DNA of 64,000 bases from Podarcis filfolensis (Eukaryota), in NCBI GenBank assembly GCA_964270895.1, contig OZ185438.1; one strand, 5' to 3'. The position numbers were made by a program, and so were the translations under genes. Below, in pieces: positions 1,365-54,857 of the stretch. Position 1 is the stretch's first letter. Every line of letters begins with the position of its first letter. A model generated the notes under the pieces. That model had not been told where the DNA came from and ran no database searches. It worked only from the letters and a program-made list of their open reading frames with translations.

Positions 1365-2439
1365 CTCTATAGCTATTAGTCTGAAGCTCTTTAAGTTTGG
1401 TCTACAGGTGTTTGCTATGGAATTGTGTGTGTATGTATGTATTCTGCGAAGAACCAACAGCCGTCCTCAATTTCTCTAACAGAAAGCCTTTAAACTTGCT
1501 GAGCATCTGAGTATTAGAAAATGAATAGCGAGTTCCTTTGCCTTTAATAGTCAAATTTTAGGCAGCTATTCAACAAGTGCAGTGATCTTTGATATTTCCT
1601 TCCTGGTTGAAAATGTCCTAACTTCACTGCTTGAAACTATTGTGAAGGAATGGAAAGCATTTTGATAAGAAACACAGATAATCACTCAAGTTCAGTTCAG
1701 GGGTGTTTGAAGGCATGTACATGTAGATATGCTGCTCCAGTGAGGTGAAAATCACATTATCTTTACACTCTCCCTCCCCACAAACTTCAGTTTCCAGTTC
1801 TCAACCACAGCCATCAATTTTGGTCTGCGGCTTCCCTTTTTAAATATTCCACCTCCCCATGCATTATTTCTAGAACACTCAATTTAACTTAAAATTAGAT
1901 CAGTAAACACAGGCCATCTGGCACTTTTCTGAGATGCAAATCTGCAAGCTTCACCGTGTCATTGGCTAAACTGCTGTGATATCACAGAGGCCTGGAGATG
2001 TTTGAAGCATGTGAAAAGGTAAGTAAATAATGGGGCAAGAGAATGAACTAAACTGAGTTCTGAATCAGGGAACCCCAGGAAGAATGGTTTATCAAAATAT
2101 TCAGTAAGAAATTAACCTTAGATGAAACCTTGAAATGATTTGCAATGGCTGAAAACAGAGCTTCAAACAGACTTTAAAAATTCATTTGTCATTCTTTGAG
2201 TGTTTCTAGATTACTTTCTGTATTTTAGTTTCAAAAGACAGCATAACCATGCTTACCAGCCAACTTTAGCTATAACAGGAAATGGCATCCATACCATCTA
2301 TTTATTTATATTTCATACCATTGATCAAGGCCCTGTGACCACCCTGTCCCCTAAGGAGTAGAGACAACTAGAGACAACACAGCATATTGGCTACAGATGT
2401 GGGGTTTGGCCATAGTCATTGAGGTAAGCAATAAAACGT

Positions 2440-3090
2440 CACTCCCGCCCGTCCGCCAGGAGTGTTTCTACAGGTGAAACCAGCAGAGGGGGGGGCCCTA
2501 TGACCTATGTCAAAGCAGGGCGTCCCCCAAGCAATCCCTGACAGAGGAGTGGTATGACTCTAGCCCCTGTCTGGGCATCAGACAGGAGCCACTCTTCCCA
2601 GTTCCTTTTACCAGGATACCTTTACCCATGGAGGGGTTGGCGGAGGCTACAACCTCCCCTCCAACCAATGCCTATCCACCTTACAAAGTTGCGATGATTG
2701 CTATGAGGTAGGCGAAAACTCAAATGGCTGTGCCGATTAGCCAAGTGGGGAAAATTCCAGCCCCTGAAAATTAGGTGACTGACATTGTCCATAGCAAGGT
2801 CGGACCATACCCAAACAACCCTAATCTGAGGGAGGGAGGGTGGGAGAACCAGTGTGGCGAGAAAGAGGCCGAAAGGCCCCGCCAGCTGGGCATTTAAACT
2901 CCCCCTGTGTGCAACACCAAGGGCTGTGATTGGTTGGTTGGTCCCATGCCCAGGGGAACACCCATTAACTTCTGCCACCAATGGTCCTGGTAAAGTACCT
3001 TCTGGTCTCTGATAGGCTGGTTTTCCAGGGAGGCCTGGGGCCCACTCACAAAGCCGCCTGCCCAAAAAGGGGGCCAACAGACTTCCTGTG
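2440..3090 (-). mobile_element. Degenerate non-coding relic of the Ngaro-type YR element family (ends uncertain)
   Basis: 2600-2900 aligns by eye with 45620-45800 and 53960-54200 (ccaatgccta..ccttacaa.gttg, ggc.aaa..caaatggc, ccaat/ccgatt.agcc, aaaattcc, catagcaaggtc). Hairpins fall at the same positions. Confidence 0.65.
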
Positions 3091-4247
3091 CCACAAAATC
3101 TTCTCTTTCCTCCTCCTCTAAGGATTGTTCTGCCACCTCTATTTCACAGATTAAAAAAACAGTGTTCAGGTGGAGATGGTAATTTGCTGGAATGGGTTCT
3201 GCAAAACTGCATACATTCACTTAATGTGTTTGAACATATTATTTGCCTTGCAATTAATCTAGAAAAGCTGGCAACAGAGAAAAAGAAAAGGGAAACACAT
3301 GAAATTGGGATTTCAGGGGGCTAAGGGGGAATGAGGGGGAAAAGGTATCATTTTTCACTTTTATGAGGAAATACATAAACACGTAAACAGAAACATACTT
3401 TTTAAAAAAATATTAAAAAGCTCAAAGTCTTCTTTATTTTTTGAGTTCTGTTCCAACTTCTATCTTTCTGAGCTCATACAGTTCCTTTGAAAGTACATCA
3501 AGTGCCTTCCACTCTCTTTGTATCTCTGACAATTATATGCATCATATTTTATTATTTATCCTTTTAGTTTCATAAAAAGTTGACCTAAACACCTGTCCTC
3601 ATCTCCACCCCTTTTTAGCACCCCGGTGTGCAAGCAATATGCTTTTCAAGGGCTTTTTCCCTTCTTCACGCTGATGTATTTCTTTGTGTTTTCCTTTGGG
3701 ATTTGTTTCCCAACAGTCTCTTTAGACATTATGTTATAATGCTTGACTTGCTTTCCCATCAAGTATTGTTCTGTGCCTCCATGGTGTTCTCTCTTTGTTG
3801 CTGTCTCTCCAATGCAGTGCTGACCCTGCCTGCTCAGTGTGCGGGACTCATGCCTGCGAGCGCTGAGACTCAATAAGACTTATCACTGTGCCTTTGCTTG
3901 TCATATCAGCAGGCTCATCTCATCGACAGAAATATATTCTGACTGACTAAGCCTGAGGTAGACAATGCTTAATTCTCCACTACAAAATTCTCCAGGAATG
4001 GAAGAGAAATTCTGCCAGAGGGCACCAGTCCTGTCCCTGTCCTATTATCCCAACACACCATTTACTCAGTTACTGGCATTACGTTCTGCTTTATCAGTCT
4101 GATAAGGGTGTTTTTGCTTGTGTTTACCAGTTTACAGTACATTTCAGCAGGCAGTCAAGATGAGAGCCAAAGTTTTTGTTCCTACCCAATCCTGATTATG
4201 ATCTGGGCCTCTGAACCTGGACTCACATTCAATGCCATATTGTAGCC

Positions 4248-40094: not shown

Positions 40095-40464
40095 TGTTAT
40101 GTACTGAGTTGAATAGGATCCAAACTGCAGCAGTCTGATTGGTCCTAGAACAATAGGATCCAAAAGGCAGCAGTCTGATTGGTCCTAGAACAATAGGATT
40201 CAGAATGCAGCAGTCTGATTGGTCCTAGAACAATGCAGCAGTATGATTGGTTGGCAGGAACCACCCAATCATGCTCCAGATAGAAGTGAATCCACAACCT
40301 GATTGGCTTACAGTAGAATTCCGGAATTAGCCAATCATGTGCAGCCCATTGTGTAAATAATGTATATAAAGCAGATACTTTGAGGGGACATTCATTCATT
40401 CCTCCTCACCACTATGAGCTGAATAAAGAGCATGAAATCACTTTGCGACTCTGAGTATATTTCA
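40095..40464 (+). promoter_or_regulatory. 5' LTR with three ~40-bp ATTGG(CCAAT)-containing repeats, TATA box and polyA signal
   Basis: Repeat unit gcagcagtctgattggtcctagaacaat; TATATAAA 40363-40370; AATAAA 40422-40427. Confidence 0.9.
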
Positions 40465-40465
40465 C

Positions 40466-40483
40466 TGGCGACGAAGGTGGGAT
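40466..40483 (+). promoter_or_regulatory. Primer-binding site, tRNA-Ser(GCT)-type
   Basis: TGGCGACGAAGGTGGGAT one base after the LTR, complementary to the 3' end of vertebrate tRNA-Ser(GCT) as I recall it. Confidence 0.8.
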
Positions 40484-40589
40484 CCCGCTGAGCTGACTGC
40501 CACACACAGCACCGCAGCACCGCCACCTGCCGCACCGCTGCCTCGCACCGTGTATCCAGGCTTCAGCTCCGGGACACAAGGAACTCAGA

Positions 40590-41957
40590 ATGGCAACCGA
40601 CAGCAGCTTCTCGCCATTCAACCCAGCATCTGGAGACTGGGAAGCGTACGCCTCCCGTTTCACCTTCCTCCTAGAAGCCAAAGGGGTCACCGATGAAGAA
40701 GACGCCAAGAAGAGGGCAATATTCTTCAGCGTCTGCGGAGAGGAGACGTTTGAAATCGCCCGGACTCTCCTTGCACCTGAAGACGTTGCTACTGTTCCAT
40801 ACAAAACAATAATGGAACAGCTGAAGGGGCACTTTTCGCCACAGCCCTCAGTGGTGGCTCGTCGAAATGCCTTCTACGCAAAGCGGCAAGCCCCTGGGGA
40901 AACCATAACTGGGTTTGTGACCTCTCTCCGCCAAGCTGCCCGGTTCTGCAACTTCTCAGAGCTGGAGAACATGCTTCGTGACTGCCTCGTCGGTGGCCTG
41001 AAGGATGAGAAGCTGCAACGACGCCTCTACGCTAAGAAGGACCTAACGTTCCAGGTCGCTCTGGAGGAGGCCCTGGCAACGGAAGCTGCCAAGAGGTCGA
41101 CGCAAGAGGCATGGCCGAGCCAGCCGTCCCAACCGAGGGTCCACCACAAAGACCTCACCGATGACTCAGGATCTGACAAGGAGGAGGTGCACCGAGTACA
41201 GCAGCGCACTCAAGCAGCCCACATACCACAGCTGCCTCGACGAGAAGGAGGGAACTGCGCAAGCTGCGGGGAAAGTCACGAGAGGAGGACCTGCCGTTTC
41301 CGCAACGCAGAGTGCAGGCAGTGCAGAAAATTGGGACACATCGCCCGGGTGTGTCGAGCTCGGCCCACCCGACGCCAGGCATCAGATGACCAATCCAAGA
41401 GCCCCAGGTCCCGGGGCCCAACACACCAAGGCAACTCGACGGAGCTCACGGACTTCCAGGTATACCAGTTGCCCCACCCCAACGTAGAGAACATTTATGT
41501 AGAGGTACAGATAGAGGGGGCCCCATGCCGCATGGAGCTTGACACGGGTTCAACTCTATCCATAATCTCGGCAAGGACCTTAAGGAAACTGTGTCCTACT
41601 GGGGGTCCCAAACTCAGGCCGGCCCCATTCACCCTCCGGGACTTCCAGAAACGTAAGGTCCCCACAATGGGGGTGGGGACCTTCAGGGTGCAATACCGAG
41701 GGCGGACGCGGCAACTGGACTTGCTTGTGGTCAAGGGCCCCTACATTAGCTTATTGGGATTGGCATGGTTTGGACCACTGGGGCTAGCCGTCACCGGGGT
41801 GAACCACACAAGCTTACAAGTGGACGTGGACGCCATATGCAAGGAATTTCCGGGGGGTTTCGATGGGAAATTGGGACAGTATACAGCCCCCCCATTGCTC
41901 TACAGCTTGACCCCACAGTACGACTTTCATTCATTCCTCCTCACCACTATGAGCTGA
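40590..41957 (+). CDS. gag: Gypsy Gag-aspartic protease ORF (455 aa), running into the deletion junction
   Basis: Gag N-terminus (FNPASGDWEAYASRF), two zinc knuckles CASCGESHERRTC and CRQCRKLGHIARVC, protease LDTGS; frameshift near 41885; stop inside the 3' LTR remnant. Confidence 0.9.
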   Translation: MATDSSFSPFNPASGDWEAYASRFTFLLEAKGVTDEEDAKKRAIFFSVCGEETFEIARTLLAPEDVATVPYKTIMEQLKGHFSPQPSVVARRNAFYAKRQAPGETITGFVTSLRQAARFCNFSELENMLRDCLVGGLKDEKLQRRLYAKKDLTFQVALEEALATEAAKRSTQEAWPSQPSQPRVHHKDLTDDSGSDKEEVHRVQQRTQAAHIPQLPRREGGNCASCGESHERRTCRFRNAECRQCRKLGHIARVCRARPTRRQASDDQSKSPRSRGPTHQGNSTELTDFQVYQLPHPNVENIYVEVQIEGAPCRMELDTGSTLSIISARTLRKLCPTGGPKLRPAPFTLRDFQKRKVPTMGVGTFRVQYRGRTRQLDLLVVKGPYISLLGLAWFGPLGLAVTGVNHTSLQVDVDAICKEFPGGFDGKLGQYTAPPLLYSLTPQYDFHSFLLTTMS

Positions 41958-42504
41958 ATAAAAAGCATGAAATCACTTTGCGACTCTGAGTATATTTCAT
42001 AGTCTATAAAAGTGTAAGTGAAAAACTGATTACAACATTTCATCTTTTGGATTCCACCTTCATTACTTCATTTCCACTTTTTATAAATAAAAGTTTAGGT
42101 ATTTGTTGTTTGTATTTCTGGATCTATGGAATTCCCTTGCTGTAAAACTCTTGTTCCTCAATGTGATCCTTTTCCACTGCCACCTAATCTCCCAGTAGCT
42201 TGGTGTGAGACTGACCCCCAAACTGGATAACAAATTAACTATGAAGATTGTTTGTTTAAAATATAGTTTGTATATAAGGAAATACTGATGCTTACTTATA
42301 TTTGCATGATGCCAGTTTCTAAAGACTGAAAAGTTTATGACACCAGACTCTAAGACTGAGCCAAATTCCCTAAACCTCCATCCTAGTCAAATTCTCCCCA
42401 AACCTTGTCCAGCTACTTAGGACAAAGTACCTTTGACTCCAAAGCTTCTCTGGTTGTATTTCTAGCTGTGTGGACAGTTTAGCTGGGACTTTATGGTGAA
42501 GGGT

Positions 42505-45010: not shown

Positions 45011-45317
45011 AATGTACTAGGAGAAAGTAAATACAAAAATGCATTAATCAATGAAAATAATGTACTAAAGGCAATAAAATTATGGTAAACTGCTTGCAAA
45101 AATGAACATGTGTGTGGATTTTCATGAGGAGTAAAAAAAAATCTCAAACCCCAGTGGAAAAAGGAAAAGCAGTGGAAGCTTGTCCTTTCTCAATGGAGAC
45201 ACTGGAAGACAGTTAGGACATAATTATGGAGACCTAAGCCATAAAAGTAGGAAGGAATGATAAGCTGCATCAAAGATGTCATGACTGAATAGAGGCCCAT
45301 AGATTTGGCAAATATTT

Positions 45318-46002
45318 GTGTGTTGAGACCTTTAAACAACTTTATTGATTTACAGCAAATGAATGGTTGCATAGGCTCTGGTTCGACTAGCTCCCTGCAC
45401 TGTTGGAGGGAGCACTGACCCAGGGCACCAGCATAGGTCAGCCTAGGGTGAACACCTGGATAAGCGGAAAGCCGGGAACAAGCTATCTCCGCCACTGAAA
45501 TGTCCCCCTGGACTCAGGCACGGGCACAACCCCCTCTCAGGGGTTGACCAAACCATTGAGTCCCTGGATTCCTTTAATGGAATACCCTTCACATAGGGAT
45601 GGCGAGAGCGTTCTCCCATCCCTATCACCTGAACCAGAGCCTATCCACAACCTTACAAGTTGTGACGATTTGCTACGTGGCAGGCAAAACCCAAATGGCA
45701 GCAGCCAATCAGCCAAGGGGGGAAAATTCCTGCCGTGTCCCTGTCCCAACAACAGATGACACAAGACAGCATAGCAAGGTCAAGCGCAAAGCCCTAAAAG
45801 TAGGGAGAGGTGGGCAAGTGTTCTGAATGCACACACCAAAAGAGGAAGCTCTGGGTCACGTGCATGGGTATATATAGGTCCCTTGATCCGTTTAGCCTGC
45901 GTCCCATTGGCCTGATTGAACCCTGCATCAAGGGACCTACCAATTGGGTGTTAGGTTGCCAGGTCCCACCGCAACACGTGCCCTCTTTAAAGGAGGACCC
46001 GA
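45318..46002 (-). mobile_element. Non-coding 'A-B' relic of the Ngaro-type YR element (685 bp)
   Basis: 45340-45640 is the reverse complement of 49350-49660. The 5' part has CCAAT motifs and TATATATA (45869-45876). Ends GTGTGTT / GGACCCGA, both flanked by ttt. Confidence 0.8.
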
Positions 46003-47617
46003 TTTGCAGACATCTGAGTGTAGGCAAAGAGGCACTCCTACAATACGGTGGAAATACTACATCATACGTGATTCCCAGTGATAAAAGAGAGAGGAGAGAG
46101 AGATCCTGCACCCTAAATTGCCTTTAGCCAACTCTAATCTTTCACTGCCTCTGTCTAATCCAAATTGCAAACTACTGTTTCTTCACATATGGAAGCACCC
46201 CTCCCACAGATCAGACTCGCCCCTTAAAATGGAGCGTGTTTTACCATCTCCAAGCTCTTATGGCTACCACCTTCAAATATTAACAATATCTTCAATTATC
46301 TAGAAATAATCTCCTGACAATAAGCTTCCACAAAGACATTAGCCAATCGTTATGGGCTGTTATGTGCCTTTCACGGGAATCCTTTGCCAGCAGCTATAAC
46401 ACTGTACTTATGTGGGAAACATTATTACATGATGTTCAAAAGATATATGAACCTAGAACAACATGCCATGCTCTTTGATCTCATCTTCCCCTGCACATTA
46501 ATAAAAATGTATTATCTCTGCCTGCCCCCCCTGCCCCCGGCCTCCTTGTCTTCTGTTTCCAGAATTTGCTTCATCTTTCTTCCCTGGGTGAGGCAAGTAC
46601 ACTCACGTTAGAGGAGAAAAAGCCATATACCCAAAATACCATGGATCCAACAGTTCAGCTGACAATTCCATGGGAAATAAAGAGAAATATATGGGAAAGA
46701 GAATCAAAGGTTGCTAAGAAAATTGTTTGAACAGCAAGAAAACTTAGGAAAAATAGCTCAATTTATGACTGCTAGCATGAGTGAACCATAGTGTGATAAA
46801 TCCAGGTATCTACATGCCGTCTTTCCCTCACCATTTATTCCTCTGATTTTTGCCACCATCTTGAGGGAATCAAGAGTCCCCCCCCACACACACTTTGGCT
46901 CTCCGAGTTCAGAGAGCAAGGCTGGCTGGGGGAGGCAGTGTAGTGTTGTGCAGGCTTGCCGAAGCCAGGCCGGGCCAAGCAGGCAAGCAAGTGCCTTGGC
47001 TGCCCAGCTGAGGGGCCTCCAGGTGCCAAGCTGGCATTTGTTCACCCCCCACCAAGGGAGGAGAGGAGAAGCAGAAGGAGAGTCTTCCTGCCGGTGCTGC
47101 CTCCTAGCATATGCCTCCCGAGGCACTTGCTTCACCCAGCCTAGTGGCAGGACCAGCCCTACACGGCCTAGTGGGCTGAGCTAGTCTAGTTTACTATTGA
47201 AAAAATGCCTTTTAAGTTGTTTAACATCATAGCTAACAGCCATGCAGGTTACATTCTTGGTGTGTAAACTGCATTTGAGAGCTGAATGACTGTAACTTGA
47301 TTTCAGAAAGAGAAAATGACAATAAATCACATAAATCAAAGCTTGATTGATATTAGTATGCAGCACAGTGTTTCAGCAGTACATCAACTTCATGCAGCCC
47401 ATTTTCAAACATATTTATTGTAAGTATTCTTTCTTCCTGTGGAAGGGAGTGGTCCCTCTGTTTCTCAAAGGAAATATGAACCTTTTGATCTGGGAAAACA
47501 TCTTGTTCACTATGGTCCCATCTGCATCTAAAACAGCACCATACCACTTATAAATAGTCATGGTTTCCCACAAAGAATTCTGGCAATGGTGGTTTGTTAT
47601 GAGTGCTAAAAGTAGTT

Positions 47618-47980
47618 AAAAAGGTAAAGGTACCCCTGCCCGTACGGGCCAGTCGTGACCGACTCTAGGGTTGTGCGCTCATCTCACTCAAGAGGCTGGG
47701 AGCCGGCGCCGTCCGCAGACACTTCCGGGTCACGTGGCCAGCGTGACGAAGCTGCACTGGTGAGCCAGCACCAGTGCCGCACACGGAAACGCCGTTTACC
47801 TTCCCGCTATAAAGCAGTACCTATTTATCTACTTGCACTTAAGGGTGCTTTCGAACTGCTAGGTGGGCAGGAGCTGGGACCGAACGACGGGAGCTCACCC
47901 CGCCGCGGGGATTCGAACCGGTGACCTTACGATCAGCAAGTCCTAGGCACTGAGGTTTTACCCACAGTGCCACCCGCGTC
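47618..47980 (-). mobile_element. Sauria (POM-type) SINE, full length, young
   Basis: CpG-rich intact copy; 12-bp TSD ctaaaagtagtt (47606-47617 / 47981-47992). Confidence 0.95.
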
Positions 47981-48025
47981 CTAAAAGTAGTTGGGAGACC
48001 TCTATTCCCCTCTAGACCTCTAGCT

Positions 48026-48715
48026 GTGATTCCTAGAGTGGTTTCACAATCAATTCATCTTTATTCTAGAGACCCTTGTGCAAAGTTTGTAGTGCACAAG
48101 GCTCTCAAGGGTTGGGCCAGGTTGCAGCCACTGAAGTCGCCGGTCACATTTGACATTTTATTCTTGATGCACAGCAAGTTAAGACTTGTCTGCTGGTCCA
48201 TTTATGAGGTGAGACTCTTTTCAGCAGCTTTTTCAATAGCATTTTTTGTTGCACTGCGTGTTGCCGAAGTGGTGCTGGAGTCAGCACAGGGAAGGGCCCC
48301 CAGGGGCTTGCTTTTGCAGGATGTTCAGCTTTCTGACACTGAGCTGGTTCTCACTATTCGAAATCCTAAAACAGACCAGTTGGGCAGAGGTGCCTTGATG
48401 CAGCTGCCTGCCACTGGTAAGCCCGGCCCTTGTCCAGTCAAAGATGCCAAGAGATATTTGTCACTTCGTCCACCTGGGGATGGTCCTTTCCTGGTTCACG
48501 AGGATGGGTCCCTGTTAAAGAGGCATCAATTTGCTGCAGTAATGCATAAGGTGCTTTCAGTGTGTGGCCTGCTGGCCAGTGATTTTGCACCTCATTCTTT
48601 CCGTATTGGGGCAGCCACTACTGCCGCGCCCTGGGGCCTGTCCATTGACAGGATCAAGGATCTGGGCTGCTGGAAGTCTGACGCATACAGGGGTTTTGTT
48701 AGGATGCGGCGCTGA
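48026..48715 (+). CDS. Tyrosine recombinase (DIRS/Ngaro type), N-terminally truncated
   Basis: AFFVALRVAE (R), RNPKTDQ (K), HSFRIGAAT (HxxR), LGCW, SDAY (Y). The first ~11 codons probably lie outside the element. Confidence 0.9.
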   Translation: MIPRVVSQSIHLYSRDPCAKFVVHKALKGWARLQPLKSPVTFDILFLMHSKLRLVCWSIYEVRLFSAAFSIAFFVALRVAEVVLESAQGRAPRGLLLQDVQLSDTELVLTIRNPKTDQLGRGALMQLPATGKPGPCPVKDAKRYLSLRPPGDGPFLVHEDGSLLKRHQFAAVMHKVLSVCGLLASDFAPHSFRIGAATTAAPWGLSIDRIKDLGCWKSDAYRGFVRMRR

Positions 48716-49739
48716 GGTGTAGTTATTAATGTTGTTCTGTTCATTCCTAGGTCCGTCTGCCCTTTACATCTGGATAGTTGGGCACAGCATTGTCCACTGG
48801 GCCGGCAGGAGGGCAGCAGAGTCTGGATTCAGATGCAGGCTCAGACTCCCCAACCACGTGAGCGTCTCCTGGGTATCCAGATGAGGAATGGGTCGGGAGG
48901 AGTTTCTCCTGACGGTGCGGGCGAAGGTGTCTGCGGCAGGCATGCCTGCGGCGATGGTGGTGCAGCTGGGCGAGAACAATTTGCCGAAAGCACCCAGATT
49001 GAGCCTGTGGACCCGCATGCAGGAGGACTTGGAAAAGTTGAAAGCAGCTCTTCCTGGACTCAAAATTTTTTGGTCGCAGCGACATGGGTGGCGAGGTAGG
49101 CAATGCCCAGCTGCCACCGAGAGGGCCAGGAAGCGTGCCCAGAGCACTGTGGCCAAGAAGGTTCTGGCCTTGGGCAGGATGGTGATCTGTCACCTGGGCA
49201 TTACCTTCTGTGATTCGTCCCTTTACAGGCTTGATGGGGTTCATCTGTCTGTGACTGGGAATGATTTGTGGCTGGCCTCAGTGTCAGCGGGGTTAAGGAA
49301 TTGGTTACAGGTGTGAGTGGTTGGCGGCCAGCGTGGGGCTCGTGTGGCGGATAGGCACTGTTCATGTGATAGGGATGGAAGAGTGGTCTCACCATCCCTA
49401 TGTGAAGGGTATTCCGTTAAAGGAATCCAGGGACTCAACTGGTTTGGTCAACCCCTGAGAGGGGGTTGTGCCCATGCCTGAGTCCAGGGGAGCATCTGGA
49501 CTCATAGTCTGTTCCTGGCTTTTCGCCTACCTCAGGTGTTCACCCTTGCTGACTTATGCTGCTGCCCTGCGTCAGCGCTGCCTGCAAGGGTGCAGGGAGC
49601 TACTCGAACCAGAGCATATGCAACCACTCACTTTTCTGTAATCAATAAAGGTGTGGCCTAAATTCTGCCAAAAGCCAAAACTAAAATTTGAGTCAAATGT
49701 GTCTTTATTTAGGAGGGAGGTCTCTGGGTCTGAACACGC
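48060..49739 (+). mobile_element. 5'-truncated Ngaro-type tyrosine-recombinase retrotransposon
   Basis: YR ORF, then SGNH ORF, then a ~420-bp terminal repeat with AATAAA (49644-49649) ending GAACACGC; gag and RT absent; left end approximate. Confidence 0.85.
48729..49316 (+). pseudogene. SGNH/GDSL hydrolase-like ORF with one in-frame stop
   Basis: In one frame: IWIVGHS (block I), RGM (block II), QLGENN (block III), DGVHLS (block V); TGA at 48882-48884, plausibly CGA>TGA. Confidence 0.8.
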
Positions 49740-50417
49740 AAATAAGAGAACAAAGAAGAGAGAATAATGTTAACTGTATCCAAAGGATACAAAGCCAAGT
49801 TTCAGTAAAAGCAAACATTCATGTTTTCCCCAAATCACTAGAAAATAAGTAACACCCCCCCACACACAATTAAAGTTGAGGTGGGGAGGGAAAATCAGTT
49901 CAAGCTATTGGTTATCATGTGAAAGATCATATTCTATTCAGCATTGCAGAATTACAGTAATTCAGATTTTGGAACTGTTATCTAGTTCAATTGTTTCCAT
50001 TATTTTATGCATGCCATTTTATTTTCTTCACACTGTAGTGTATCTGGAATGTTAATTTCATTAAAATGTAGAGTTAATTATTACTAATCCACAGTTTGCT
50101 TCCGGAGTCCGCCGTTATCTGTGGATAAGTTAATAGCTGCCACTACACATGATCTGATGTGAACTGAAGTGATGTAAAGCATATTTAAGGGGTGGGCTGT
50201 GTGTGAACAAATTTGATCAGAAATAGATGGCTGTCATATTCACTATCTGAAAATGTATTTCATATCACATTTTCCATCTCCACCAGAAAGCTATACATCT
50301 GAGATAATGAAAGCTCATGGTGTCTCACATTAGACTAAATGAAACAAAACACATGTTAAAGTGGAGCATACTCAAAACACTGTTCTTCCTTACAGGTAAA
50401 CAAAGAGTCTAACTCAC

Positions 50418-51375: not shown

Positions 51376-53607
51376 GACATAATAGAAGGTGAATATATAT
51401 CCACTCTTATTTACCTGCATTGGTCCATGTGAGAAGGACCTCTTCTTTTGTGCCGCCCATACACACTGGACAGTGACGGACTTTGACCTTTCAATTCTCA
51501 GTGGCGACACCAAAATTCAGCACCCCTCGCATCTTGCCCTCCATTGTTCATCACTGTTGCAGCCCCCTGTGGCACCCTCTCAGCTGGGTGCCCACTGCAG
51601 ATAAACTAGTTGTGCTTCCCTAAATCCACCTCTGACACTAGAAAATCTTCCCAAAGGAGCCTCATTTGGCACCAGCATTGTTTAATTTTCAACTTCTGAT
51701 AAAAACTTGACTTTTTAGATTCATGACTTCTGCTTTGTGATATATTTTCTATCTTTTGAAGGCTGATGTTCTTGTGCTGTTATACTTCTGGTATCCCCTC
51801 CCCTCTGTTGCCTTTTGCCACCTTTATGACTGATGGTTTTACATGACTTATACAATGTTGTTAGCTGCTTTGATTTGCTTTCCATGAAAAGCAGGGTACA
51901 AATTATTAAAATAAGTAATCATATATGCCAACTGTGCCGGCTTAGAAGATAAATATTTCCCTTCCAGTCTAGCAGGTGTTTACAGTGCACTGGTGTCAGA
52001 TTAAAGCATGGTGCACAGGCTGCCCTGGTGCTTACAAAGACATGTACAGATCCCCTTAACAGACACATTGTTAGTGAAAAACACATGAGCAATCCTATTT
52101 GAATAAGGTTGAATCTTTGTAATTAGGAATGCAAACACATGCATTTACCAGAGGGAACCAGGATTGTAATTCTAAGTACAGTTTGAAAACAGAAAGCCGT
52201 AGATATCAAAGCAGATGCTTGAACAGCGTAGCATCATGAGTTTACCTAATAAGGAATTCTGACAGACTAATTTCAGTTAATTACAGAAGTCATTATTTAC
52301 AGAGATGTACTTACTGTAAAAGATTGCTTGGGCACTGCTGAACTGGATGACACAAATCACAGGCATCCAATTTGCAGGAAGGCTTGTTATGGTGTATGCC
52401 TATTAATTTTCTTGTTATTATTTTTGCACATTTTTTAAAAAAGCTTGCTTAAGGGTCCCATATTAAGCTGTCAATATTCATTCAGATCCACATTGCTTCA
52501 TCCACTTTTCTCCCAAGCAGAATAATTCAAACAGTTGCAAAAATACATTTTCCCCTTGATTTATTTACAAGACATCTACTAATTGCAACACTCTGACATG
52601 AAAATCTTAGTGATGACTGGAGACAGGTGAATAGGCCCCAAGCACTGAGGATGGGGCTTGGAGATTTGGAGGGACCCAGCTCAGACTGCAAGCCCATTAT
52701 GATGAAGGAAAAACCTGAGGCTAAATCAGAGGTCATATTTAAAGATAAAGGCCTGTTTCCCTGTTTTTCCATAGGGGTGTCCAGATCTGAGATGCCATGG
52801 GCCAGAACCAGAACAAACAACAGGTAAGCAAAAAGCAAGCAGCTGGCTGAAGCTCTGCTCTTGACAGCAAGAGAGAGATGTCCCATTCACATGTTGTTCA
52901 TGTGAAAGAGGCTCCATACATTATATGCATTCATTTACTGCAGATATATCCTGCCTTTCCTCACAAAGGAATCCAGGGCAGCAAATACACCAGTCTTAAA
53001 AATAATACACTTTTAAATCAATCACATATTCTCACAGCTAACCACTGCAAGGTTGCCAGAAACAGTAACTTTCAGCCATCAAATGCCTGGGTAAGGAGGA
53101 ATGTTTTCTAAATTCACCATGAGAGAAGGCATTCCACAGATGGCCAATCTTCCCATGTTTTGCCCCAATCTTCTCCCTCCTGGCAAGCACTGCAGTGTGG
53201 GGGGAAGCTGGGAGAGCATCACTACTAGCAGAGTAGCTAAAGTGCCACTAGGAAGTCAACATCATGTGCAATACTGACTATTTTCTTGAAATTGAAACAA
53301 TGTCCAATGTCAAAAAGCTTTTACTTGCAGAACATAAAGCTAAAGAAGAATGTATGCAAAGTGTTTACATGCTTCTCCAAGCACGGGCTTAGTTCTTCTT
53401 AGTTGAAGATCACAGCTTCTTCCTGAAACATTCATACAAACTGAGTCTTTCTCTGTTTCCAGTACTTGTACGCAGCCTTCTGCACATGACTCAGCTTGGC
53501 CATGCAGTTCCTTCTGAGAAGTTTCCACTTTCTCCTTCCAGCAGACTTCTGCTGACTGCTTCTTTGGGAGAACATCAACTTATGCATTTCTTTCTGTCAC
53601 ATGCATT

Positions 53608-54417
53608 GCGTGTTGAGTCCCACAATGCCACCCCCCAAAAAATTCACACTTCACACATCAATTTTTGTTCAAGGTTTTTGGCATAAATTTTGGCCACAAC
53701 TTTATTCAAAATACAAAAAATGTGAGTGGTTGCTTAGGCATTGGTTATGACTATCTGTCCTTGCCCTCAGGGACAGAGCTGGCCTTCCGGACACCAACGG
53801 AAGCCAGCGTGGGAAACAAGTATTGGGTGAGAAAATGAAGCTGGGCCTCAGTCCCTCACTTCTCACCCTCATGTTCCTTTGGGGCTTGCACGGCCCAAGT
53901 CCGACTCCGGGGACAAGGACGCCAAGAATGGCAAGCCCCTGGATTCCTTTAACGGAATTCCCTTTCCGCACCACCATTGGAGGGGTAGGCACTTACCCCT
54001 CCAAGAACCAATTTAACCAATGCCTAACCGCCAACCTTACAAGTTGTGACGATTTGCTACACAGTAGGCAAAAACCAAATGGCACCAGCCAATCAGCCAG
54101 ATGGCAAAATTCCTACCAGGCCCCTGACCCAAGGCAGACGACCCCATGACAGGCATAGCAAGGTCAAGCGATCAAGAAACCCCCCTAATTAAAGGGAGGG
54201 AGGGCGGGTGATCCGATGCAAACCGGCCAAGAGGACGCCCACGTTTGGGCGTCCTATATTTAAGGACTCTGACCCCTCCTCCAAATTAGCAACAATCCAA
54301 ATCCCCAACAACCTAATTTAACCACTTAAAGGCTTGGGCTCTCCCAAATCTGCCCAGTCATGCAGGGTGGCCTGTTCCCCCAACCGCAACACGTGCTCTC
54401 TGTTATGGAGAACACGC
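53608..54417 (-). mobile_element. Non-coding 'A-B' relic of the Ngaro-type YR element (810 bp), both termini intact
   Basis: Perfect 7-bp inverted ends GCGTGTT (53608-53614) / AACACGC (54411-54417), flanks att / ttt, no TSD; homologous to 45318-46002 and 49320-49739. Confidence 0.82.
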
Positions 54418-54857
54418 TTTCCCACAACAACATCAGCAGTCCGCTCCTCTATTGCATTTAGAGAGTTATCCGACACTGTTTCTTCTTCAGTGCTCATGGA
54501 GATGCAACCATTACGGTCAAGTCAGTCACACACAAAACAAAATGGAGACTATAATAAGATACCTCCCATGTGACCAGAGTTAACCAAACACACAAGAGTT
54601 ACTGGAGAACATTCCAAAATTAAACACACAGTAATGCATTTAAGCATTCCCAATTTCAGTAAGTTATATCACTATACTTCACAATCACGAGCCACTACTG
54701 GCCATATATAGGGAATACAGAAATGAGAAAGTCCAAGTTTGTTGAGTTCACCATTTACAGATTGTGGAGATACTGGAGACTAACACCACATTAGTTCTAC
54801 AGTTCTTCACTTTCCTTTAGGTTCTCATCACTCTTGCCCACCTTGTCCTACACTAGC

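Follow-up and report, generated by a model that had tools for sequence, protein, structure and literature searches.

Among the tyrosine recombinase (YR) retrotransposons of the DIRS order, the Ngaro layout accompanied by an SGNH hydrolase open reading frame (ORF) has been described for the DIRS-53_XT type of Xenopus (PMC9210276), and solo units made up of one A and one B repeat are known from Cafeteria (PMC8547959) and as the SIRE of VIPER (PMC6681497). For the DIRS1-like elements, a circular-junction model built around a trinucleotide, along with the absence of a target site duplication (TSD), has been presented (PMC3266345, PMC7192593), and the single-stranded cDNA of DIRS-1 is antisense (PMC7192593). 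At issue here is the way in which the recombinases of the DIRS order select their substrates and join them; according to the accessible part of a 2020 paper, YR specificity in these elements was unstudied by experiment (PMC7192593), the available text of PMC9210276 gives no crossover position, target profile or junction fold, and the available portions of PMC3783388 and 10.64898/2026.07.28.741278 hold nothing on Ngaro termini. No folded or integron-like site in Ngaro or DIRS elements was met in the literature searched, the primary Ngaro papers and the supplements being outside its scope and an earlier mention therein being possible. Integrons themselves offer a further point of reference: their integrase, whose IntI type is marked by an I2 helix (PMC7790495), cuts a folded strand at the A/C step of AAC, tolerates a changed AA in one of the partners, requires that the partners agree in the first base past the cut, and carries out one exchange at attC, which is resolved by replication (PMC2811028, PMC2727003).

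The locus in question lies within a 64,000-nucleotide stretch of Podarcis filfolensis DNA (contig OZ185438.1; hereafter, the window), positions 53606-54418 of which (minus strand) are a solo unit (A-spacer-B) from a Ngaro YR retrotransposon. The coding sense is set by the YR frame at 47954-48715, by which both this copy and another one at 45.3 kb are placed on the minus strand, and an element read in this sense runs AAA-GCGTGTTCTC ... CTCAACACGC-AA. The whole 813-bp insert, delimited by an empty-site joint and by its identity with a full-length copy, stretches from a terminal A to a terminal AA and is divisible into an A repeat of about 210 bp (54209-54418, minus), the element-derived first A of which is at 54418, as judged by A1/A2 comparison and host-flanked starts; a 175-bp spacer (54034-54208, minus) that repeat comparison places only between A2 and B2; and a B repeat of about 425 bp (53606-54033, minus) with an element-derived terminal AA at 53606-53607, as delimited by B1/B2 comparison and flank counts. 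Counted in the window unit, A has 209 bp, the spacer 175 bp and B 426 bp. A TATA-like box in A (54253-54263, minus) is, from its letters, a putative promoter, and an AATAAA is located within B at 53701-53706.

Two more copies in the window are of direct relevance. The 45.3-kb one (45316-46003, minus) belongs, by sequence comparison, to a second family (A start TCGGGTCCTC); it is a solo unit that has lost ~100 bp near its B end, and spans from ttt followed by GTGTGTT (45318) to GGACCCGA followed by ttt (46002). The coding one (47982-49741, plus), recognized by its frames and by comparison with the full-length family member L048, is 5'-truncated and retains the YR frame, a broken SGNH-like frame (a label taken from L048, the window copy itself being without a Pfam match) and one B repeat, which ends at 49739 as GAACACGC followed by aaa, i.e., continues into AA without an A2 thereafter; a high-copy SINE-like repeat (47620-47981) adjoins and truncates this copy on its 5' side. 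The letters of the termini, as quoted in the original prediction, were all confirmed, the 53.6-kb copy reading att followed by GCGTGTT from 53608 and AACACGC, up to 54417, followed by ttt. An older relative of the same solo type, about 75% identical, is seen on the minus strand at approximately 2300-3100 of the window. The stretch best conserved across the three families of the window is the spacer between A2 and B2 (54035-54170, 45559-45786 and 2663-2850), a motif of which, at 54035-54050, is common to these families, and which, going by this conservation, likely carries a cis signal. A G-rich, polypurine-tract-like run at 53620-53640, just upstream of the B-end arm of the hairpin described below, is also seen in other families at the end of B (columns 1-12 of the A1 alignment), and B itself begins with TGG; either might be a candidate priming signal. 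Elsewhere in the window, three 40-bp tandem repeats followed by 93-bp direct repeats on either side of a frame of 486 codons, which has a weak match to gag-aspartyl-protease (40112-42014), are, by their sequence, a remnant of an LTR-type retroelement.

When the unit was used as a query against the 1.5-Gb genome, 3881 candidates were retrieved, 40 of which were scored. The window unit is 99% identical to the A2-spacer-B2 part of a full-length copy (L002/L048), and full-length elements of 6.8-7.5 kb show the order A1-ORFs-B1-AAA-A2-spacer-B2. As expected of split direct repeats, A1 was found no more than 9.9 kb upstream in 12 of the 13 loci holding the internal junction and was identical to A2 at 98.6-100% over 205-218 bp in 12/13, with B1 and B2 of the junction loci being 98.8-100% identical. 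A Pfam scan of one copy, L048, revealed a reverse transcriptase (RT; RVT_1, E 2e-12) and, after the YR, a Lipase_GDSL_2 (SGNH-like) match that is below the cut-off (E 2e-4), and no methyltransferase (MT) match was found in the four L048 frames scanned; a long frame ahead of the RT (L048:3244-4785) has a weak ZAP-like CCCH zinc-finger match. Split repeats, RT plus YR and an SGNH hydrolase ORF after the YR without an MT are what defines Ngaro here, and the best named relatives of the recombinase come from lizards and amphibians. With A and B lying between host DNA and an empty site found, the window copy is a genuine solo AB unit. The element type, its internal junction and its solo units per se are already known; the end-repeat family of the window copy is, in other words, a known Ngaro element with confirmed ends, the geometry of which, as originally conceived, has to be corrected.

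The ends themselves are not in doubt. In the 40 scored copies (of 3881), A was found at -3, -2 and -1 in 40, 39 and 40 copies, respectively, and at +1, +2 and +3 in 40, 40 and 14, an agreement of termini across the family that is far beyond chance; the 3' flank, expected to be a trinucleotide, consists of AA and then a free base. In runs X2, X5 and X17, three of the four inspected and belonging to three studies, 53605 is joined to 54419: 813 bp are missing and two letters fit either side, so that AA is present once in the empty site; these runs are contigs, in which filled and full-length alleles are indistinguishable and the letters between the joint sides are marked as unknown, and in the fourth, X1, the joint was not seen. 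Eight of the 87 solos reside within other repeats having paralogous empty copies, and the gap is two in 8/8, reading AA in six and, where the copies have diverged, CA and GA in the other two. The empty joint, taken together with these paralogous gaps of two, indicates an insert of 810 + 3 bp and a target in which AA occurs once. Family flanks, the internal junction and the empty site thus concur in marking genuine ends of a YR retroelement, and the absence of a conventional 4-6-bp TSD and of an end at the internal TGTTG...CAACA, both anticipated by the original prediction, holds for the empty site and the paralogous empty sites alike. An integrase-type solo LTR with TG...CA ends and a 4-6-bp TSD, for which the TGTTG and CAACA shortly inside the ends might be taken to speak, is accordingly rejected and can be considered next to impossible: the empty site drops 813 bp with two letters in common, a direct repeat of two or less is seen in 84/87 solos, the parent elements encode a YR and have split repeats, and TGTTG and CAACA are simply pieces of two hairpin arms.

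Which of the flanking A residues belong to the element can be read from where the exceptions fall. In the group of the window copy, non-A bases at -3, -2 and -1 number 5, 8 and 1 among the 100 matches listed of 801 (hand count), and at +1, +2 and +3 they number 0, 1 and 42 of 74; in the second family (family 2), whose 5'-flank pattern required a non-A at -4, the respective values are 12, 21 and 1 among the 100 listed of 123 matches (hand count), against 0/46, 1/46 and 19/46, an asymmetry that is significant both for -2 vs +2 (Fisher p 0.002) and for -3 vs +1 (p 0.018). An A at -1 is found in all 84 host-flanked starts. When both ends of the same solo are considered (55 paired solos), 48 are AAA/AA, six keep the 3' AA but carry an odd base at -2, and one is TAA/AG; in family 2, AAA/AG is found in 2 of the 37 paired solos. 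As the mismatches are nearly all in the 5' AA and not in the 3' AA, the element itself must run A...AA, with the crossover at AA^A: the host gives the AA before the cut, whereas the element always contributes its own initial A and final AA. In the host, AA is preferred, with mismatches tolerated, and the host origin of the mismatched -3/-2 bases is inferred from the 5'/3' asymmetry, no empty site having been seen for a mismatch-flanked copy. For annotation purposes, this corrects the boundary rule, in that such elements should be delimited as A...AA and the flanking AA should not be called a TSD.

The same crossover alters the interpretation of the internal junction. Joining of the ends had been predicted to give a B1-A2 junction reading AACACGC-AAA-GCGTGTT, which was indeed found at 13 places, invariably around AAA, against 0 in the control. 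The proposal that two inverted arms around a 3-nt overlap constitute the YR site, that is, a canonical core of conserved arms flanking an overlap, is, however, not supported, with the crossover mapping to AA^A instead. The 7-bp arms are real in the family of the window copy, while their 8-bp version mixes two families, and inverted arms around AAA hold solely in this family group: in 15 of 24 junction types only 2-4 of 7 pairs can form, 63.6% of positions are paired overall, and not one double change is seen. The 9-bp palindrome further inside also exists, albeit with eight Watson-Crick pairs and one T.G, and is better read as the tip of a long fold-back of the junction than as an extra double-stranded YR site.

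Once joined, the ends are predicted to form a conserved sense-strand hairpin that contains the crossover. Natural junctions fold to about 22 bp on this strand (z -3.8 to -7.4) in the order of a lower stem, a bulged purine, CGCAA paired with TTGCG, a third A opposite G, and the palindrome as the tip, the donor hairpin being about 50 nt in all. Projected onto the window copy (minus strand throughout), the predicted fold and the pair counts place the 5' arm at 53606-53617 (lower stem CTCAAC, bulged A at 53611, and the core CGCAA up to the crossover) and the 3' arm at 54379-54390 (G opposite the crossover A, TTGCG against CGCAA, then the lower stem), with co-variation across families delimiting an apical stem-loop at 54391-54417 that has an invariant T.G pair and a variable loop of 6-8 nt. 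The crossover coincides with the invariant A.G mismatch of the stem.

Conservation of this fold could be evaluated beyond the family of the window copy. A core-N26-28-core pattern gave 146 matches vs 27 in the control, and among the first 100 of these, of which most of those resembling elements were examined, there were further Ngaro families that have unrelated upper stems and YRs ~50-60% identical to that of the window element. In the 24 distinct junction sequences compared (46 loci were entered, some representing the same place twice), upper-stem positions 3, 5, 7 and 9 are paired in 23, 24, 24 and 23, with the partners changing, position 6 is T.G in 24/24, and the sense strand is more stable than the antisense one in 23. 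Of the natural junctions, 22 could be aligned; 89.4% of their positions are paired, 10/19 pairs show double changes, and their covariation of 0.389 was reached in none of 500 shuffles and not by slid controls (at most 0.185), the shuffle count not being a probability, however, given that these junctions are related and perhaps represent 5-8 independent lineages. The measure of "further pair types" did not exceed the shuffles (486/500), and the search pattern itself demanded the invariant core pairs, which are unselected in the 13 predicted-junction loci only. RNAalifold, unaided, recovers the core and the upper stem and misses the lower one. The search for a natural junction in family 2 gave no matches (control 21), the fold of this family being seen in in-silico circles (31/37). 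Taken together, a conserved fold at the crossover is well supported, and it has what an attC-like site would have, namely, a single-strand hairpin that co-varies and whose 5' arm holds the crossover after AA. Among the families bearing the junction, the one most often met in the core-pattern search has the loop ACTAAAG (G000 loci L159-L161 and L166-L195); it contains internal tandem arrays and often just a short SGNH remnant ahead of B1, and may be a non-autonomous derivative in which the repeat layout is still complete.

The recombinase expected to act on this junction has a complete catalytic set (R181, K218, H293-x-x-R296, W319 and Y327), and its structure is predicted with a pLDDT of 90; the YR Pfam matches are below the cut-off, with a Cre match at E 9e-12, and the model is nearest to Cre (TM about 0.7), that of the integron integrase 2a3v scoring 0.58. 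The recombinase is thus Cre-like by both sequence and fold, and not IntI-like. This, along with a T after the six-base spacer in 24/24 junction types and the fact that symmetric protein sites can co-vary as well, would suit a conventional double-stranded YR core (AA^N6-TT/TC) used without spacer homology and followed by biased repair, in which the palindromes would be accessory protein sites or an aid to cruciform formation. Tn916-type integrases do recombine without spacer homology, and of the explanations considered, this one is nearest to the idea behind the original prediction. It is, nevertheless, quite improbable: the targets show no preference for a second half-site (+9/+10 are flat), circle-derived sequence is missing from the 5' flanks (CACGC in 0/84), the upper stem keeps its pairing and not its sequence, with a fixed asymmetric T.G, and the arms around AAA show the poor pairing without double changes noted above.

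What the targets do show is one-sided. In the window copy, the host half-site (54419-54424, minus), delimited by the flank profile, consists of the AA preceding the cut and four bases of weak preference, which in 84 host-flanked starts are T (46), G (45), a purine (74) and a non-A (81) at -7 to -4, respectively. The resulting T-G-R-notA-A-A profile of the family is located 5' of the cut, with little beyond +3 on the 3' side. The +3 base is A in 32, C in 28, T in 9 and G in 5 of 74, which means that identity after the cut is not needed. An enrichment of C at +3 in families starting with G (49/123, p 3e-7) is what pairing between the incoming host base and the G that faces the cut would lead to, with which family 2, having A in 25/37 and C in 6/37 and, hence, no enrichment of C, disagrees.

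The products are equally one-sided, as the flanks show one product type only. No permuted elements were found among 74 junction loci with B2 in range, and the search for an A copy upstream of 79 candidate junctions gave none (one of the five without B2 is not a real junction). Approached from the other side, A1 was present in the stretch examined for 7 of 11 loci at which the internal region, B and host follow each other, one of the 11 having been examined on the wrong side, and every such A1 was host-flanked. This lack of permuted elements counts against a symmetric double-stranded circle with two identical junctions, although it does not follow from the fold by itself that the internal junction should never integrate. 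Solos, for their part, are abundant: of the A starts sampled, 25/30 and 27/30 are host-flanked and have the spacer, making solos ~85-90% of this sample. Most simply, the solo form arose later by A1 x A2 recombination; alternatively, it could be a direct insertion of a small A-spacer-B circle. Internal sequence with B1 is followed by the junction in 11/22 and by host in 11/22 (two of the host loci share a flank), a ratio that is compatible with either route.

These observations also bear on whether the hairpin might act not in integration but in RNA or during reverse transcription (as a pause, a template switch, a packaging signal or a means for read-through of the B1 poly(A) site), with integration left to a double-stranded circle and a short AA homology. 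The fold prefers the sense strand and tolerates G.T(U), the B1-A2 junction is within the inferred transcript, and the standing model, with the DIRS-1 cDNA being antisense, makes a double-stranded circle (PMC7192593). Co-variation does not single out DNA either, since the sense fold is present in the transcript as well. Set against this are the location of the crossover exactly at the invariant A.G stem mismatch, the expectation that a staggered 2-3-bp overlap would leave mismatches on both sides, when for AA nearly all are 5', and the permuted elements that a double-stranded circle should give, seen in 0/74. An RNA role of this kind is, thus, rather unlikely, although it deserves more weight than the double-stranded core.

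Our preferred reading, which we regard as fairly probable, is that the YR cuts the folded sense strand at AA^A and joins it to the chromosome by single-strand, one-exchange integration. Reverse transcription would rebuild the B-A junction, which, either single-stranded or extruded, would fold so that the half-site for cleavage is made up of CGCAA/TTGCG and the bulged lower stem. The spacer would be the six nucleotides that follow the cut, six bases being the distance between cuts in Cre, and the T.G would sit at the would-be Cre-type second cut and block it. A partner monomer would cut host DNA at TGRN-AA^N, and replication or repair would resolve the single exchange, hence the single product type; one exchange would explain both this one product type and the one-sided target. 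The broader proposition, to which we would give even chances, is that Ngaro elements, and probably all of the DIRS order, integrate from a folded single-stranded junction at TGRN-AA sites with the T.G disabling the second cut, as an independent eukaryotic counterpart of the integron attC, and that some solos are primary insertions of small circles. Counted against folded-strand integration are the sense orientation of the fold vs the antisense DIRS-1 cDNA, the free base after the cut, unlike in integrons, and a YR nearer to Cre than to the integron integrase; an IntI-type protein would not be required, however, as XerC, in the available account, performs such a reaction for the CTX phage. If true, folded-strand recombination, as in integrons and the CTX phage, would extend to widespread animal retroelements and offer a loose-target integrase. 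For oligonucleotide tests, the family set supplies a defined donor hairpin, the exact position of the crossover, a profile of the target and compensatory variants that occur naturally.

With regard to the known systems, the part of PMC9210276 available depicts the Ngaro elements of the DIRS-53_XT type as likewise having A1-ORFs-B1-A2-B2 split repeats, an RT, a YR and an SGNH-like ORF after the YR, the 175-bp unique spacer between A2 and B2 being what sets the window element apart. An A-rich three-base junction, an internal copy of this junction and the lack of a true TSD are shared with the DIRS1-like elements as described in the accessible sources, which differ in having inverted repeats and an ICR instead of split repeats, and whose model wants an identical 3-bp target, whereas the families described here prefer two bases, none being strictly needed. 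On our reading of Table 3 of PMC3266345, 8/8 AAN-junction elements with unequal ends fit an antisense AA^N crossover, on which the authors make no remark in section 10 of that paper. The CTX phage/XerC system, in the portion of PMC3442271 available, resembles the proposed reaction in having one pair of strand exchanges between a single-stranded donor and a double-stranded host that replication resolves, and differs in relying on host recombinases and the fixed dif site instead of an element-coded YR and a loose target. The closest likeness, one of how the site would work, is to the integron attC as portrayed in the consulted portions of PMC2811028, PMC2727003 and PMC7790495: a hairpin defined by structure with little sequence conservation, a cut after AA in the 5' arm, a partly unpaired central part, a bulged base, a variable loop, strand asymmetry and tolerance of AA mismatches. 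Unlike attC, the Ngaro junction needs no base identity after the cut, has its bulge in the outer stem, and is served by a Cre-like YR within a eukaryotic retroelement that has no cassette array.
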